A stretch of DNA of 7,140 nucleotides from NCBI RefSeq assembly GCF_003334335.1, contig NZ_QOWQ01000073.1, one strand, 5' to 3'. Below, one piece after another: positions 776 through 5,944 of this stretch (positions within the stretch are counted from its first letter, which is position 1; each line of letters opens with the position of its first letter). The translations under genes and the position numbers were made by a program. Source of the DNA: Escherichia coli (GTDB lineage Bacteria; Pseudomonadota; Gammaproteobacteria; Enterobacterales; Enterobacteriaceae). The notes beneath the pieces are model-generated. The model saw nothing but the letters and a program-made list of their open reading frames with translations. It ran no database searches and had not been told where the DNA came from.

Positions 776-982
776 ATGAATACCCCAGTTTCACTGATGG
801 ATGACCAGATGGTCGACATGTCGTTTATCACTCAGCTGACCGGCCTGACCGATAAATGGTTTTACAAGCTCATCAAGGATGGTGCCTTTCCTGCCCCCAT
901 CAAACTGGGCCGTAGCTCCCGATGGCTGAAAAGTGAAGTGGAAGCCTGGTTGCAGGCACGTATTACACAGTCCCGTCCGTAA
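776..982 (+). CDS. alpA: AlpA-family small HTH regulator (phage/island transcriptional regulator, excisionase-like), 68 aa
   Basis: Lies inside track ORF 722..982. I place the start at ATG 776, with GGAGG at 762-766. The product is MNTPVSLMDDQMVDMSFITQLTGLTDKWFYKLIKDGAFPAPIKLGRSSRWLKSEVEAWLQARITQSRP. Its size and layout match AlpA-type proteins: an HTH followed by FP.PIKLG.RS.RW...EV..WL. This is family-level recognition from memory and it is not the K-12 alpA ortholog sequence. Confidence 0.85.
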   Translation: MNTPVSLMDDQMVDMSFITQLTGLTDKWFYKLIKDGAFPAPIKLGRSSRWLKSEVEAWLQARITQSRP

Positions 983-1067: not shown

Positions 1068-1640
1068 ATGCAAAAACTTGAAAACCGGTGTGAGCTGCTG
1101 CTCATCCAGCATCAGAAATGGATGACAAACGTGACGAGGCTTATCGTCGCTCATGGAATGGGGGCTCCGCATCTTCATGGTTATCACCGCCTGACCCTGG
1201 CCCACTTTTTTCTGCCAGAAAAAGGCACCATCATCTCAGTGGCACCACAGGGACTCTATCAGGTCGTCAACCCGGGAACACCACCGTTCATTCCTGCCAT
1301 TCAGGAAGGGTTAATGACCAGCATTCAGACCCATGAAATCATGCTGCTTACACATTTTAATCTGGGCGGCGTTTTACTCAGTGAGCTACATCGTCTGGGT
1401 GAAAACCGGCTGGCAAACAGGCTGAACAGCCTGCTCCGGCGTTTCAACGATCGTGATCTCTACCACACGCTGATATGGCTGTGCTGGTATGATCTGATGT
1501 GTGCTCACTCCATGCAGCCCTGGACTGAAGAGTTAAAGCATAAATCACATGCAGAGCTTGAAAACTGGGCTGTGGCGCGCAAACGGGAAAAGCGCGAGCT
1601 GGAACTGATGATTGACGAGTACCTGTTATACGCCTGTTGA
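1068..1640 (+). CDS. hypothetical protein, 190 aa, family not recognised
   Basis: The track ORF 1041..1640 begins at TTG. ATG 1068 has a strong AAGGAG at 1054-1059 (8-nt spacing), giving MQKLENRCELLLIQHQKW... It sits 85 nt downstream of alpA on the same strand, so co-transcription is plausible. There is no TM segment, P-loop or obvious HTH by eye. The C-terminus is charged and helical (KREKRELELMIDEY). Confidence 0.6.
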   Translation: MQKLENRCELLLIQHQKWMTNVTRLIVAHGMGAPHLHGYHRLTLAHFFLPEKGTIISVAPQGLYQVVNPGTPPFIPAIQEGLMTSIQTHEIMLLTHFNLGGVLLSELHRLGENRLANRLNSLLRRFNDRDLYHTLIWLCWYDLMCAHSMQPWTEELKHKSHAELENWAVARKREKRELELMIDEYLLYAC

Positions 1641-1760: not shown

Positions 1761-3251
1761 TTATAAGCCAAAGGATTGCTCATGCCATCTTATCAGTTTC
1801 TGGCTGTAGCACGCATTCAGTTCAGGCAGCGTGATATTGTTTATTTCGGAAAGCAGGACATAGGTGGTTTTTCCTTCCTGCACGACAGAGAGCCTGAGTT
1901 GAGATGCAAGAATGTTCAGCAGGACGTTCAGCTTTTTCCTGTTCCGGAACCGGCCCGGGCCACACTGGAGAATATAATTTTTCCTGACACGGGGCGGGCA
2001 TTCTCCGCGGCACTCCTCAATGAGCCAGTCGAGCAGCTCCCGGGCGTCCTGCAGCTGCAGTTCAGATTCGTCAGGTAACGCAAATAATTTTTTATATTCA
2101 TCTGTGTACCACGAACTTATTACGACAGCAGACGTCATGATATCGGCAGAGATTTTCCCTTCACCCTGACTGAAATACTGCAATAACGCAGCAATTCTCG
2201 CAATGTTTTCTGTTTTTTTTGAAACATGCCCCCGAAACTGGCTTAAGGGTCCGGAAGGAGACAAATCCTGCTCCAGAACATTATAGTGATCAATAAATAT
2301 TTTTTGCGCTTCAGGAGAAAAATGCAGACAATAACGTTCATCCTTACTGGATTTTTCAATACTGCCTCTGGCCAGTTCCATTAATCGTTCATGAAATGCC
2401 GTTAATGATCCTCCCGGGGTCACAGCTCCGTTAATAAAGCGTTTCCCCTGCGTGGTGGCAGGTTTACTGATTAGACAACGGGCAAGAAAACCACTGTCCC
2501 TGGCAACAGAACCTTTTCGCTCCATATATCGGTCAAAAAGACCGGGTTGTACCATGAGGGATAATGTCATTCTAGCATTTTCAATCATCTGTTCGGGTTC
2601 ATTCTTTCTGTCCACCGACAATACGGAGCCATCCCACATTTTGTTAATAAAAGGCAGCTCAGACAGGGTATACCCATCAAATATTATACCGGCTTCATCA
2701 GACATGATACCCACTGAACGCCACTGACCACAAAGCTGATCTTTAATTGCTGCTGTCGTGGCATCATTAAAAATGAATTTATATCTTACAGGTTTTTCCC
2801 CTCTGTTTTTCTGAAGCGCTTCCAGTTGTCTGAGCGTTTCTGACTCATCCGCGCCTTTGCGGAGTTCTTTATTCAGTTTTGACAACAATGCTTTTTTCTG
2901 CGCCTTTAAAAGCTCTTCCTTATTTTTCCATATCGTCAGTTCATTTTTGTGTCTGGAATATAACAGCATCTCCTGCTGGTACAGGGGCTCCATTAATAAT
3001 TTGTCCACTGCGGTTTTTCGTTCTCCGGACTCAGCAAGCGTCAGTAAGAAAAGAGAAACCGGCCCCCGCAGTGTATTCAGTCTGCAGACATCAATCAGAT
3101 TCTGGCAGACAAGTGAAACAGCGCCCAGGGCAGATGCTGCCACAAGCCCCAGGGGAGCCTGCGTGATTTGCTGAGCTTCAATAACGGCATCACGAATGAG
3201 TGGAGGCAGCGAGCTCAGGGGAAACTCATCAGGATACTGAAAGTATGGCAT
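1761..3251 (-). CDS. DUF3987 / YfjI-like island protein, 496 aa, with Walker A-like and Walker B-like motifs
   Basis: Track ORF 1761..3269. The preferred start is ATG at 3251 (minus strand), preceded by GAGG at 3260-3257 with 5-nt spacing. The N-terminus MPYFQYPDEFPLSSLPPLIRDAVIEAQQITQAPLGLVAASALGAVSLVCQ matches the conserved YfjI/DUF3987 N-terminal pattern as I remember it. AESGERKT (aa 73-80) resembles a Walker A and VGIMSDEAG resembles a Walker B. Confidence 0.85.
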   Translation of the reverse strand: MPYFQYPDEFPLSSLPPLIRDAVIEAQQITQAPLGLVAASALGAVSLVCQNLIDVCRLNTLRGPVSLFLLTLAESGERKTAVDKLLMEPLYQQEMLLYSRHKNELTIWKNKEELLKAQKKALLSKLNKELRKGADESETLRQLEALQKNRGEKPVRYKFIFNDATTAAIKDQLCGQWRSVGIMSDEAGIIFDGYTLSELPFINKMWDGSVLSVDRKNEPEQMIENARMTLSLMVQPGLFDRYMERKGSVARDSGFLARCLISKPATTQGKRFINGAVTPGGSLTAFHERLMELARGSIEKSSKDERYCLHFSPEAQKIFIDHYNVLEQDLSPSGPLSQFRGHVSKKTENIARIAALLQYFSQGEGKISADIMTSAVVISSWYTDEYKKLFALPDESELQLQDARELLDWLIEECRGECPPRVRKNYILQCGPGRFRNRKKLNVLLNILASQLRLSVVQEGKTTYVLLSEINNITLPELNACYSQKLIRWHEQSFGL

Positions 3252-4084
3252 AATGACCTCACAACACACAGAACATAAAGTACCGCAACTATTGCTACTA
3301 ATAGCAAAAATAGCAGCAGAATCAATACAGGATAAAAATTTCTGTCGATTTTCAGATTAAATAATAACCATTCGGTATTTTGTCGCTAAAGAATGTTAGA
3401 ATGAATCTGTGCGTCTACGGGCGCTCTCCGGAACACACATGTTGATTAATTTTCACACAACAACGTACCAGCAAAAAGCATCATCCAGGGTATTGCAGGT
3501 ACGGGTTTCCTGCCGGGAATAAACATAAACAGTTTCCCCGGAGTAACGCTTTCAGAAAACTGCCCTCCTGAAGAAGAATAAAATAAAGAAGATGACAGTT
3601 CCTGCACTGAATGCTGAGTACAATATTCTATGGACAGGATGACATTTTTATAAATAACAAAAACCATTTAATACTGATACATCAATAAAATACTTCCTCC
3701 CTGCTGACACAGATAAAATGCAACATTTTTTCTTCAAATACTTCTGTATAATCGCCAGCCAATGATGAGAATGGATTAAAATAACACTTCTTCGACAAAC
3801 ACAAAAACCAGCCTTCATTTTCACATCATCATCCAGTTTTAATTAAACCCTGACGAGCGACAGTATTTCAGTTCAGGAATTAAAAGCCAGCTATTACTCA
3901 GTAAAAACACCACCAACTAATAATATCTCAGCAGATATTTCCTGACCAGGATGACACATTTATTAAAGATTTTTAACAGGACACTTCACATTACTGAACG
4001 CTATTCCGACAGTATCACTACACAAATAAAAAAGGGAACTGGATAAATATTCATGCCGGAAGAATGGTGTAACAAAAGCATTTA

Positions 4085-4097
4085 ATCATTACGTGCG
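4085..4097. repeat. 13-bp direct repeat ATCATTACGTGCG, copy 1
   Basis: Exact match to 4209-4221. It lies 14 bp left of the palindrome. Confidence 0.7.
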
Positions 4098-4110
4098 TAT
4101 TCCTCTCTAT

Positions 4111-4140
4111 TCGATCACGGTTTGGCCAAACCGTGATCGA
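4111..4140. repeat. perfect 30-bp palindrome TCGATCACGGTTTGG|CCAAACCGTGATCGA
   Basis: The reverse complement of 4111-4125 equals 4126-4140 exactly. It contains GATC at 4113-4116 and 4135-4138 and a central TGGCCA. The palindrome does not extend beyond these ends (T4110/T4141 mismatch). Confidence 0.9.
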
Positions 4141-4208
4141 TTCAGATGCCATTTTGCAAGTACGCATGACCCGGAAGGGAAACACTTAACAACATGGTAT
4201 CAACAGAT

Positions 4209-4221
4209 ATCATTACGTGCG
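4209..4221. repeat. 13-bp direct repeat ATCATTACGTGCG, copy 2
   Basis: Exact match to 4085-4097. It lies 69 bp right of the palindrome. Confidence 0.7.
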
Positions 4222-4357
4222 CACTCTTATAAAAATACACAGCAGAAGCAAGATAACTCTAAACGTAAATTTAATATCTCCCACTGACTGCCCCGACAAT
4301 ATACTGAAAAATACTCACCTCAGTAAACATAAACACACCTGATAATCAGGCTGCAAG

Positions 4358-4441
4358 ATGAATATTTTTCTCCTTTACGGAGTAATCAGCCTGCTGTTTA
4401 ACAATAACCGCGTATTTTCATGGAAGGATATCACCCAATAA
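4358..4441 (+). CDS. speculative 27-aa small ORF MNIFLLYGVISLLFNNNRVFSWKDITQ
   Basis: ATG 4358 to TAA 4439-4441. Only a weak AGG (4348-4350) lies upstream. The N-terminal half is hydrophobic. It is the only small ORF positioned upstream of the 4528-4566 terminator. No homology recognised. Confidence 0.2.
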   Translation: MNIFLLYGVISLLFNNNRVFSWKDITQ

Positions 4442-4527
4442 CGGATAACTCCTGCCCTCCTTCATGTTAATACGCAACATCCCCATCGATTCCAAACAAT
4501 TTCAGACAGATATTATCTCCGTGAATC

Positions 4528-4566
4528 CCCCGCCACCTTTCCGGTGTGCGGGGTTTTGTCTTTTTT
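4528..4566 (+). terminator. intrinsic terminator 17 nt upstream of the yeeP start codon
   Basis: CCCCGCCACC (4528-4537) pairs with GGTG-T-GCGGGG (4543-4553), giving 10 bp with one bulged T4547 and loop TTTCC. It is followed by TTTTGTCTTTTTT (4554-4566). There is no T-run on the opposite strand, so it is + strand specific. Confidence 0.75.
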
Positions 4567-4582
4567 CACCGGGAATACATGT

Positions 4583-5455
4583 ATGAATCCGTCTGATGCC
4601 ATTGAGGCAATTGAAAAACCACTTTCTTCCCTGCCTTACTCGCTTTCCCGTCACATCCTGGAACATCTGCGCAAACTCACCAGTCACGAACCCGTGATTG
4701 GCATTATGGGTAAAAGCGGGGCCGGTAAATCCTCACTCTGTAATGCACTGTTTCAGGGGGAGGTCACCCCGGTCAGTGATGTTCACGCCGGCACCCGGGA
4801 AGTGCGGCGCTTCCGTCTGAGTGGCCACGGTCACAGCATGGTTATCACTGACCTGCCCGGGGTGGGCGAGAGCCGGGACAGGGATGCAGAGTATGAAGCC
4901 CTGTACCGTGACATTCTGCCTGAACTGGACCTGGTGCTGTGGCTGATTAAAGCCGATGACCGGGCCCTGTCTGTGGATGAGTATTTCTGGCGACACATCC
5001 TGCAGTGCGGACATCAGCAGGTGCTGTTTGTGGTGACACAGGCCGACAAAACGGAGCCCTGCCATGAATGGGATATGGCCGGCATTCAGCCCTCTCCCGC
5101 ACAGGCACAGAACATTCGCGAAAAAACGGAGGCGGTATTCCGTCTGTTCCGGCCTGTACATCCGGTTGTGGCCGTATCGGCCCGCACCGGCTGGGAACTG
5201 GATACGCTGGTCAGTGCGCTCATGACAGCGCTTCCCGACCATGCCGCCAGTCCCCTGATGACCCGCCTGCAGGACGAGCTGCGCACGGAATCTGTCCGCG
5301 CTCAGGCCCGTGAGCAGTTTACCGGTGCGGTGGACCGGATATTTGACACAGCGGAGAGCGTCTGTGTTGCCTCTGTTGCACGCACGGTTCTGCGTGCCGT
5401 CCGTGACACAGTGGTCTCTGTTGCCCGCGCGGTATGGAACTGGATCTTCTTCTGA
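4583..5455 (+). CDS. yeeP: YeeP/YkfA/YfjP-family prophage GTPase (50S ribosome-binding GTPase fold), intact, 290 aa
   Basis: Track ORF 4544..5455 begins at GTG inside a terminator hairpin. ATG 4583 gives MNPSDAIEAIEKPLSSLPYSLSRHILEHL..., which I recognise as the YeeP-family N-terminus. G1 P-loop is GKSGAGKSS, G3 is DLPG, and the G4-like motif is TQADK. The hydrophobic/amphipathic C-terminal tail is ...VVSVARAVWNWIFF. It lies directly upstream of agn43, as in CP4-44-type islands. Confidence 0.9.
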   Translation: MNPSDAIEAIEKPLSSLPYSLSRHILEHLRKLTSHEPVIGIMGKSGAGKSSLCNALFQGEVTPVSDVHAGTREVRRFRLSGHGHSMVITDLPGVGESRDRDAEYEALYRDILPELDLVLWLIKADDRALSVDEYFWRHILQCGHQQVLFVVTQADKTEPCHEWDMAGIQPSPAQAQNIREKTEAVFRLFRPVHPVVAVSARTGWELDTLVSALMTALPDHAASPLMTRLQDELRTESVRAQAREQFTGAVDRIFDTAESVCVASVARTVLRAVRDTVVSVARAVWNWIFF

Positions 5456-5526: not shown

Positions 5527-5555
5527 TTGTCCGTGCAATAGCTTGATAATAGAAT
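5527..5555 (+). promoter_or_regulatory. candidate sigma70 promoter of agn43/isrC
   Basis: TTGTCC (5527-5532), a 17-bp spacer, then TAGAAT (5550-5555). This predicts a start near 5562, at the first GATC, which fits the known layout where the OxyR/Dam region begins around +1. Confidence 0.6.
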
Positions 5556-5600
5556 AAAACGATCGATACCTATTTTATCGATCGTTAATATCGATCGTTA
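5556..5600. promoter_or_regulatory. agn43 phase-variation operator: three Dam GATC sites within the OxyR-binding region
   Basis: GATC occurs at 5561-5564, 5580-5583 and 5593-5596, each in a CGATCG context. ATCGATCGTTA is repeated at 5577-5587 and 5590-5600. The position immediately downstream of the -10 matches the published Dam/OxyR switch of agn43. Confidence 0.85.
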
Positions 5601-5760
5601 TGCTAATAATAACTCCTGTTAGCAACGTGCACAGATACACACAGACATGAGATTCAGGGAACAACAGAGCCACACGTCAGAAACTTCCGTCAGCCGGACC
5701 TCCGGCACTGTAACCCTTTACCTGCCGGTATCCACATCTGTGGATACCGGCTTTTTTATT
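5562..5760 (+). ncRNA. isrC: agn43 leader / IsrC-like terminated leader transcript (~200 nt)
   Basis: It runs from the predicted start (~5562) to the leader terminator T-tract (5752-5760), which ends 28 nt before the flu ATG. In K-12, as I recall it, isrC (~195 nt) lies between yeeP and flu on the flu strand and ends shortly before flu. The boundaries here are inferred, not mapped. Confidence 0.5.
5724..5760 (+). terminator. intrinsic terminator inside the agn43 5' leader
   Basis: Perfect 12-bp stem GCCGGTATCCAC (5724-5735) / GTGGATACCGGC (5740-5751), loop ATCT, followed by TTTTTTATT (5752-5760). Confidence 0.8.
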
Positions 5761-5788
5761 CACCCTCACTCTGATTAAGGAAATGCTG

Positions 5789-5944
5789 ATGAAACGACAT
5801 CTGAATACCTGCTACAGGCTGGTATGGAATCACATTACGGGCGCTTTCGTGGTTGCCTCCGAACTGGCCCGCGCACGGGGTAAACGTGGCGGTGTGGCGG
5901 TTGCACTGTCTCTTGCCGCGGTCACGTCACTCCCGGTGCTGGCT
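5789..5944 (+). other. Extended autotransporter signal peptide (ESPR type) of Ag43, 52 aa
   Basis: MKRHLNTCYRLVWNHITGAFVVASE is the conserved ESPR extension. It is followed by a basic n-region (RARGKRGG), a hydrophobic core (VAVALSLAAVTSL) and PVLA|AD, which fits an AxA-type cleavage site. Confidence 0.8.

Follow-up and report, generated by a model that had tools for sequence, protein, structure and literature searches.

Immediately upstream of yeeP, a gene that codes for a guanosine triphosphatase (GTPase), the stretch of Escherichia coli DNA analysed here (7,140 nucleotides of contig NZ_QOWQ01000073.1, hereafter the window) carries a GC-rich hairpin followed by a U-tract. As far as can be judged from its sequence, this element is a genuine intrinsic (Rho-independent) terminator and not a chance fold, and it belongs to a conserved 95-bp control module (4489-4582) of the yeeP/yfjP/ykfA GTPase genes, which also contains a promoter-like box. 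Most likely, the leader terminator gates yeeP transcription. The reading that we favour, with a probability of roughly 0.55, is that of a promoter-proximal terminator that attenuates yeeP's own promoter and, additionally, stops transcripts arriving from upstream; within it, the start site, the actual termination and any factor modulating read-through are parts that we infer, whereas the structure, its maintenance by compensatory change, its constant position and its association with the box and the gene are shown. A previous sequence-only reading of this DNA had proposed a strong intrinsic terminator directly before yeeP. Its positions for the hairpin, the T-run, the ATG and the hexamers TTCCAA and TATTAT are all correct when read directly on the sequence, and the terminator itself is confirmed by the fold stability and the family comparison described below.

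The hairpin and its conservation

The hairpin is formed by the 5′ arm CCCCGCCACC (4528-4537), the loop UUUCC (4538-4542) and the 3′ arm GGUG(U)GCGGGG (4543-4553), which pair into a stem of 10 bp, nine of them G-C, with U4547 bulged and a loop of 5 nt. These values fall within those of intrinsic terminators (a G+C-rich stem of about 5-14 bp and a loop of 3-8 nt), and a U-tract of the kind found in such terminators, UUUUGUCUUUUUU, begins at the first base past the stem; the release point is predicted at about 4560-4563. The segment 4520-4570 folds at -21.3 kcal/mol (z = -4.13), a stability that none of 200 dinucleotide shuffles reached, the core of 44 nt gives z = -4.35, and the hairpin alone accounts for -18.5 kcal/mol. 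A generic consensus terminator scan calls only a truncated version with five pairs (4539-4553) because of the bulged U4547, and loosely defined terminator-like sites occur in the window at chance level (8 observed, 6.8 expected in shuffles). Consequently, the case against chance has to be made from stability together with comparative data.

Relatives were collected by a protein-based search, with one genome per species, for the family of YeeP/YfjP/YkfA-type GTPase genes, which was found in about 19 Enterobacterales genera. All 27 protein-ascertained loci of the group with at least 45% identity carry the box and the hairpin, as well as the T-run except in the Pectobacterium type; the layout of box, hairpin and T-run is absent from a more distant GTPase subfamily (42-43% identity). 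Additional variants came from a metagenome scan with an exact 19-mer of the box. Few of its matches lack the GTPase gene, and these are mostly chance matches without a hairpin. The exception is a rearranged copy on a metagenome contig (L108:799-883, minus strand), in which box and hairpin are kept with no GTPase gene downstream, showing that the module is separable from this gene.

Sixty distinct leaders carry 47 distinct hairpin sequences at the same position, with a median free energy of -16.3 kcal/mol. At least six T are present among the 9 nt past the stem in 55 of these leaders, and the distance from the stem end to the ATG is 21-31 nt in all 60, which leaves no space for a promoter downstream of the hairpin. 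Twelve mutually divergent hairpins gave z values from -3.0 to -7.1 against shuffles, and at least four unrelated stem sequences occupy the equivalent site in relatives. The leaders of K-12 yfjP (GGCAGAACC-tcgc-GGTTCTGCC-GTTTTTGTTTT) and K-12 ykfA (GGCGGAATC-tcac-GATTCTACC-GTTTTTTATT), for instance, have stems unrelated to that of the window in an equivalent position; K-12 yeeP is 5′-truncated and has no leader element.

Compensatory change of the kind expected of an intrinsic terminator is also observed. When 51 instances were aligned to a previously built covariance model, both-sided changes were found in nine of the ten base pairs, in an alignment that is thus fitted to the model. The covariation score was 0.210, against 0.096 in column shuffles, and was reached by none of 500, although such shuffle tests are inflated by related sequences; in slid controls, in which the partners were moved by 1-3 columns, it was 0.025-0.074. 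RNAalifold run on a plain MAFFT alignment missed the stem through register shifts, and the covariance-model alignment was used instead. In our view, the hairpin is very probably a selected RNA structure of terminator type.

A megablast search with positions 3900-4700 found matches in 4219 of 5426 complete E. coli genomes, with a median of two places per genome; a chromosomal island of strain G1/2 is 100% identical over this queried stretch. Most matches start at window positions 4476-4491, just 5′ of the hairpin, and run into the GTPase gene, and two other island variants that were aligned are unrelated up to about 4476-4490 and near-identical beyond. By these comparisons, box and terminator form one module that stays with the GTPase gene while the sequence upstream changes, with at least 42 different contexts on that side. 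Searches for the element gave no match in phages and 21 records only in plasmids, and a phage or plasmid origin was rejected on these grounds.

Homology breakpoints that cluster at the edge of the element would also suit a site acting as DNA at a module boundary of the islands, such as a sequence resembling the nick region of an origin of transfer or the target of another recombinase or relaxase. On the minus strand, the element indeed reads as a variable inverted repeat followed by a near-invariant 28-bp sequence, and, as general background, the islands carry genes typical of mobilisable elements. However, the conserved T-run on the coding strand and the constant distance to the ATG fit a role in transcription and translation, and relaxase sites usually conserve the sequence of their repeat, whereas the stem covaries freely here. 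As the element is, moreover, rare on plasmids and absent from phages, and no relaxase link was found, a DNA-level role seems extremely improbable.

The promoter-like box and the proposed transcription through the leader

Across 42 upstream contexts, information content per position is about 0.1-0.4 bit before 4489 and rises above 1 bit at exactly that position. Conservation stays high over both hexamers (-35-like and -10-like), the whole 15-bp spacer between them and the subsequent GTGAAT, in which TGAA varies little or not at all within the family. With respect to the sigma-70 consensus, TATTAT matches at five positions out of six and TTCCAA at three out of six. A homologous box of K-12 yfjP and ykfA, TTGAAA-15-TATCAT, has 10 of 12 hexamer matches. 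Genomic SELEX (systematic evolution of ligands by exponential enrichment) with the sigma-70 holoenzyme gave peaks in the perR-ykfA and rnlB-yfjP spacers of K-12 (Shimada et al., PMC3946193), and TTGAAA-15-TATCAT has been named the constitutive promoter of ykfA/yfjP from these in-vitro polymerase-binding data (PMC3946193); a peak of the RpoS holoenzyme is likewise listed 5′ of yfjP. The sequence-only reading had taken TTCCAA-15-TATTAT for weak evidence of a promoter on account of its spacer. The spacer is 15 bp long, as it said, yet the hexamers are part of a conserved module, and their K-12 homologue has been assigned to sigma-70.

We propose that sigma-70 polymerase would initiate at the box, using TATTAT (4511-4516) as the -10, with a start near G4523/A4524, that is, 7-8 nt past the -10 and 4-5 nt 5′ of the stem, as predicted from promoter geometry only. 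The nascent RNA would then fold the GC-rich hairpin at about +5 to +31 and would be released in the U-tract as an RNA of about 38-42 nt. Only the read-through fraction would extend to the yeeP ATG (4583) and the weak Shine-Dalgarno sequence before it, and yeeP expression would stay low unless read-through rises. In these longer transcripts, 4-5 nt would precede the stem, which could stabilise them, and the next terminator on their way would be that of IsrC (5724-5757). The same leader terminator would also halt transcripts from upstream, insulating the module, and would serve as the terminator of the co-directional upstream gene where such a gene is present.

Read-through would be a constitutive leak unless a trans-acting factor determines its level. 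No conserved, mutually exclusive antiterminator helix was found; the recurrent extra helices enclose the terminator and show no covariation. In the absence of a conserved alternative fold, regulated read-through, if there is any, would probably depend on a trans-acting factor rather than on a riboswitch-like or leader-peptide switch. An Rfam scan of the window gave no match at 4480-4582 even at E <= 1, with IS102 (5559-5764) as the only match, and a description of the element was not found in Rfam or in the literature searched. A leader peptide from GTG 4521 (VNPPPPFRCAGFCLFSPGIHV, VNPPPPFRC...), whose TGA would overlap the yeeP ATG, was considered and rejected, as it is not conserved. In relatives, its frame shifts relative to the ATG, is interrupted by stop codons in the loop of the hairpin and opens with CTG in the yfjP type; nor does a Shine-Dalgarno sequence precede GTG 4521.

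Several observations weigh against attenuation of a yeeP promoter by this terminator. The -35-like TTCCAA, with its three matches, is poor, and the 15-bp spacer lies outside the usual 16-19 bp, because of which a consensus promoter scanner leaves the box uncalled. The resolution of SELEX is too coarse to place polymerase on the box itself, and the starts of K-12 ykfA and yfjP are not listed in the Cappable-seq (PMC4782308) or SMRT-Cappable-seq (PMC6131387) tables. The Term-seq tables (PMC7815308) list no 3′ end for K-12 ykfA or yfjP either, a point of little weight since the isrC end is also missing from them, so that their silence at ykfA/yfjP is uninformative. The invariance of the spacer exceeds the needs of an ordinary promoter; it hints at an extra DNA-binding factor, and the box may be, alternatively or additionally, something else. 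On the comparative side, covariation was scored on an alignment fitted to the structure, and the choice of metagenome loci depended on the exact 19-mer of the box, a bias that the protein-ascertained set and the K-12 paralogues lack. Finally, Pectobacterium-type leaders retain the hairpin with a poor T-run. In three such loci from Pectobacterium/Symbiopectobacterium (L034, L036 and L037), the box and a perfect 9-10-bp hairpin (GTGGCGG...CCGCCAC) are found about 85-30 nt 5′ of the ATG, and the tail, GCTGTTCTGTCTG, is no proper U-tract; the stem of this type may have a role beyond termination, or its termination may require a factor.

As the predicted start leaves 4-5 unpaired nt 5′ of the stem, the hairpin might instead act mainly after transcription, with termination being minor, either by stabilising the 5′ end of yeeP mRNA against RNase E and RppH, as the ompA 5′ hairpin does, or by controlling translation. 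In the latter version, an outer helix (GUGAA 4521-4525 with UUCAC 4565-4569, plus CUC with GGG/GAG) would mask the ribosome-binding site, and minimum-free-energy folds of most members do draw an outer helix that includes a Shine-Dalgarno-like GAG/GGAG. However, the covariation of this helix is at or below that of shuffles (0.138 against 0.157), an alternative register scores barely above the shuffles (0.181 against 0.163) and was reached by 35 of 500 of them, and the CUC would lie outside the RNA if transcription starts at about 4523. These outer, anti-Shine-Dalgarno helices (GUGAA/UUCAC, CUC/GAG), as drawn in single-sequence folds, were not adopted, since covariation does not support them. 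A stabiliser, in turn, needs no U-tract, yet the U-tract is kept in 55 of 60 leaders, and in the yfjP type 16-20 nt separate the stem from the predicted 5′ end. Taken jointly, the two versions appear very unlikely.

It could also be that the product is the terminated transcript of about 40-55 nt from the box promoter, a small RNA that acts in trans or that shares the terminator of the upstream mRNA. The succession of promoter and terminator, a U-tail that could bind Hfq and the similar layout of IsrC in the same island are all compatible with such an RNA. However, it would have only about 5 single-stranded nt 5′ of the stem in the yeeP type, and the 5′ segment of 16-20 nt in the yfjP type differs between paralogues, so that no seed is conserved. 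As there is also no Rfam family for it and no such RNA in the K-12 annotation or in the Term-seq tables, we regard a small RNA as the product as highly improbable.

Upstream transcripts and the surroundings of the module

In 18 of 33 loci, a co-directional open reading frame (ORF) of 84-438 codons, most often of 300-440, ends 86-185 nt 5′ of the GTPase ATG, and in six loci its stop codon is a TAA inside the box. A single, very divergent family (20-45% protein identity) accounts for most of them, and Pfam, NCBIfam, PADLOC and PHROG gave no matches for it. In the loci that have this gene, the same hairpin probably terminates its transcripts as well, a dual role, because the hairpin is the only terminator open to it.

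It could be argued from these loci that the hairpin is a terminator or insulator of the upstream gene only, orphaned in this window after the loss of the ancestral upstream gene (about 350 aa), which is still found before the module in many genomes, and that yeeP is expressed by leak-through. The box might then be an operator, an element of the 3′ untranslated region or a recombination boundary rather than the yeeP promoter. The frequency of upstream ORFs of a single family and the stop codons inside the box would be explained in this manner, as would a distance of about 30 nt from stop to hairpin, which is typical of a gene's own terminator, and the poor -35 and spacing of the box. However, box and hairpin are nearly unchanged behind at least 42 unrelated contexts, including K-12 yfjP, K-12 ykfA and this window, which have no such gene, and conservation of the box, with its onset exactly at the -35-like hexamer, far exceeds that of the upstream ORF. 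Additionally, sigma-70 holoenzyme binds the homologous K-12 spacers in vitro (PMC3946193), and yeeP would be left without any promoter if the box were not one. We consequently hold a role restricted to upstream transcripts to be unlikely, and continue to favour attenuation of yeeP's own promoter combined with the insulation of the module.

The window retains only the last 24 nt or so of the upstream gene (4476-4499), whose TAA became CAA. An ORF of 40 codons (4464-4586) crosses the hairpin and has a TGA that overlaps the yeeP ATG; it owes its existence to a CAA in place of the TAA that relatives have in the box (AAATAAT), and is spurious, not a leader peptide. A pseudogene of the upstream family in the AT-rich gap was also considered and rejected, as tblastn found none in 3270-4475. 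The sequence-only reading had left two possibilities, namely a leader terminator or attenuator of yeeP and a terminator for a transcript from the AT-rich gap. The former is favoured by the comparison, while the latter found no support in this window.

The upstream family is represented by L002:1864-3015, with homologues in L007, L014, L016, L019, L020, L023, L026, L032-L034 and L037. Its C-terminal region looks, by eye, like a ribbon-helix-helix domain, and its protein could be a regulator that acts on the box.

A direct repeat around the terminator cassette (ATCTCCGT...TGAATCC) was examined as an insertion footprint and rejected, its signal being weak (5.1 against 4.1 in shuffles); the mean score of the flank repeat is significant only in some lineages. 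The positions concerned are 4517-4528 (ATCTCCGT-GAATCC), which resemble the start-codon region 4576-4590 (ATCTCCGTATGAAT / GTATGAATCC), and the same flanks are seen in L013, L020 and L027. Such a repeat would agree with an originally leaderless layout (ATG 7 nt past the -10) that later received a terminator cassette.

The features of the window are collected in Table 1. The start codon of yeeP is identical in the RefSeq annotation of strain G1/2. Only 813 of the 5426 E. coli genomes, or about 15%, have the AT-rich stretch (with 80% or more of the query covered), and a 34-bp piece of it (4125-4158) matches exactly a plasmid region annotated as ISL3 transposase. YeeP (4583-5452) has weak matches to the PADLOC models of LeoBC (E = 1.8e-8) and LeoA, from the dynamin-like defence system Eleos, and in one island variant (L002:4189 onward) the GTPase gene is followed by an annotated dynamin-family protein, not by Ag43. 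These matches and this neighbour may be a clue to the function of YeeP-type GTPases.

Table 1. Positions of the leader elements and of the other features of the window (an empty cell means that no value is given).
Feature	Position	Strand	Basis or details
AlpA-family/excisionase-like gene	776-979		68 aa; PF05930
Hypothetical ORF	1068-1637		
YfjI/DUF3987 gene	1761-3251	minus	
AT-rich stretch with no recognisable gene	3270-4475		1.2 kb; 37% GC
Near-invariant promoter-like box, 28 bp	4489-4516	+	conservation
-35-like hexamer TTCCAA	4490-4495	+	
Invariant 15-bp spacer	4496-4510	+	
-10-like hexamer TATTAT	4511-4516	+	
Conserved GTGAAT, with predicted start region G4523/A4524 and a short A-tract 5′ of the stem	4521-4526	+	
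Predicted terminator hairpin (5′ arm; loop; 3′ arm)	4528-4537; 4538-4542; 4543-4553	+	folding, covariation
U-tract TTTTGTCTTTTTT	4554-4566	+	read from the sequence
Spacer with weak Shine-Dalgarno-like GGGA (4571-4574), 8 nt 5′ of the ATG	4567-4582	+	
yeeP-type GTPase gene, 290 aa	4583-5455	+	MMR_HSR1; Pfam PF01926, E = 1.2e-14
IsrC/IS102 RNA, agn43 leader	5559-5764	+	Rfam RF00124, 255.5 bits, E = 1.4e-49
IsrC/agn43 terminator: 12-bp stem; T-run (T6)	5724-5751; 5752-5757	+	scan and 3′ end of Rfam RF00124
Ag43-type autotransporter gene (flu), 5′ part	from 5783		

Downstream, the yeeP transcription unit is bounded on its 3′ side by the IsrC terminator, and from the yeeP stop at 5455 to the IsrC promoter region there is no terminator. 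The IsrC/agn43 promoter is TTGTCC-17-TAGAAT (5527-5555), and behind it GATC sites cluster within an inverted repeat (5558-5600), the known Dam/OxyR phase-variation switch of agn43. The flu ATG is annotated at 5783 and the K-12-type MKRH start is at 5789, which puts the terminator about 25-31 nt from the start; in the K-12 annotation, isrC is likewise placed between yeeP and flu. As stated in PMC5389530, which cites Wallecha et al. 2014, flu expression is reported to be controlled by IsrC antitermination. The parallel between yeeP and agn43 drawn in the sequence-only reading is therefore apt, as the second terminator is real, but it is not new on that side, where it concerns the already known IsrC leader terminator. 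The agn43 half of the parallel is known biology, while for the leader terminator and probable promoter of yeeP no description was found in Rfam or in the literature searched.

Significance and comparison with known systems

The YeeP/YfjP/YkfA-type GTPase genes open a conserved module of CP4-like islands, and a covarying promoter-plus-terminator leader that extends from Escherichia to Pectobacterium and Photorhabdus would give this module a concrete control point. A leader terminator could also explain the scarcity of mRNA from a promoter to which polymerase binds in vitro. Absent as it is from Rfam, the yeeP leader is a candidate for a new cis-regulatory RNA motif. If read-through were a constitutive leak, the element would be an ordinary attenuator and insulator. 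A dedicated antitermination factor, whose existence we consider improbable, would represent a new regulator that controls genes of the islands, Ag43 among them.

Among described systems, the attenuators of trp, pyrBI and riboswitches resemble the yeeP leader in having an intrinsic terminator between the promoter and the first codon that lowers downstream transcription. In these classical attenuators, however, a mutually exclusive antiterminator fold is set by a ribosome, a ligand, a tRNA or a protein, whereas the yeeP leader has no conserved alternative helix, leader ORF or Rfam aptamer. Stem-loops of the ompA type also place a stable stem a few nt from the predicted 5′ end of the mRNA, but they have no U-tract and do not terminate transcription, and the stem of the yfjP type is 16-20 nt away from that end.

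The leader of agn43/IsrC offers a nearer example, since it puts an island gene behind its own sigma-70 promoter and a strong terminator just before the start codon, with a short terminated leader and a full mRNA that share their start. By contrast, IsrC forms a leader of about 200 nt in which several structured domains are found along with the GATC sites of Dam/OxyR, while that of yeeP has about 60 nt and a terminator about 5 nt past the predicted start, and there is no sequence or covariance-model similarity between them (RF00124 matches 5559-5764 only). The presence of two such leaders suggests that terminator gating is a recurring mode of expression in these islands.

The closest described architecture is that of antitermination by Q or by Pseudomonas aeruginosa AlpA, as exemplified by the lambdoid PR'-qut-tR' with Q and by PalpB/PPA0807 with AlpA. 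In these systems, an intrinsic terminator stands before the first ORF at a very short distance from a constitutive promoter, beginning 26 bp past the start site in the case of PPA0807, and a specific DNA element between the -35 and the -10 loads the antiterminator (PMC7969949, PMC9371919). In the yeeP leader, it is the whole 15-bp spacer that is invariant, and its near-invariance across genera is compatible with a protein site in that position. A -10-like sigma-dependent pause element (A at 2, T at 6) is not evident in the initially transcribed region, as GTGAAT/CTGAAC lack the A, unlike CACGAT in PalpB. No cognate antiterminator was recognised in the window, in which no test was aimed at one. 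The AlpA-family gene of the island was considered for this role and rejected: the protein in the window has 68 aa (PF05930) and is excisionase-like, whereas P. aeruginosa AlpA is 21Q-like, with at least 142 residues, so that the two are unrelated and share their name by coincidence.

It is a rather slim possibility that box and terminator are the loading site and the gate for a processive antiterminator such as Q or P. aeruginosa AlpA. In that event, a factor whose gene could lie in the island or on a helper element would be loaded at the yeeP promoter, and the modified polymerase would pass the leader terminator and then, 1.2 kb downstream, that of the IsrC/agn43 leader. A single antitermination factor would, in this manner, switch on the whole conserved right-hand module of these islands.

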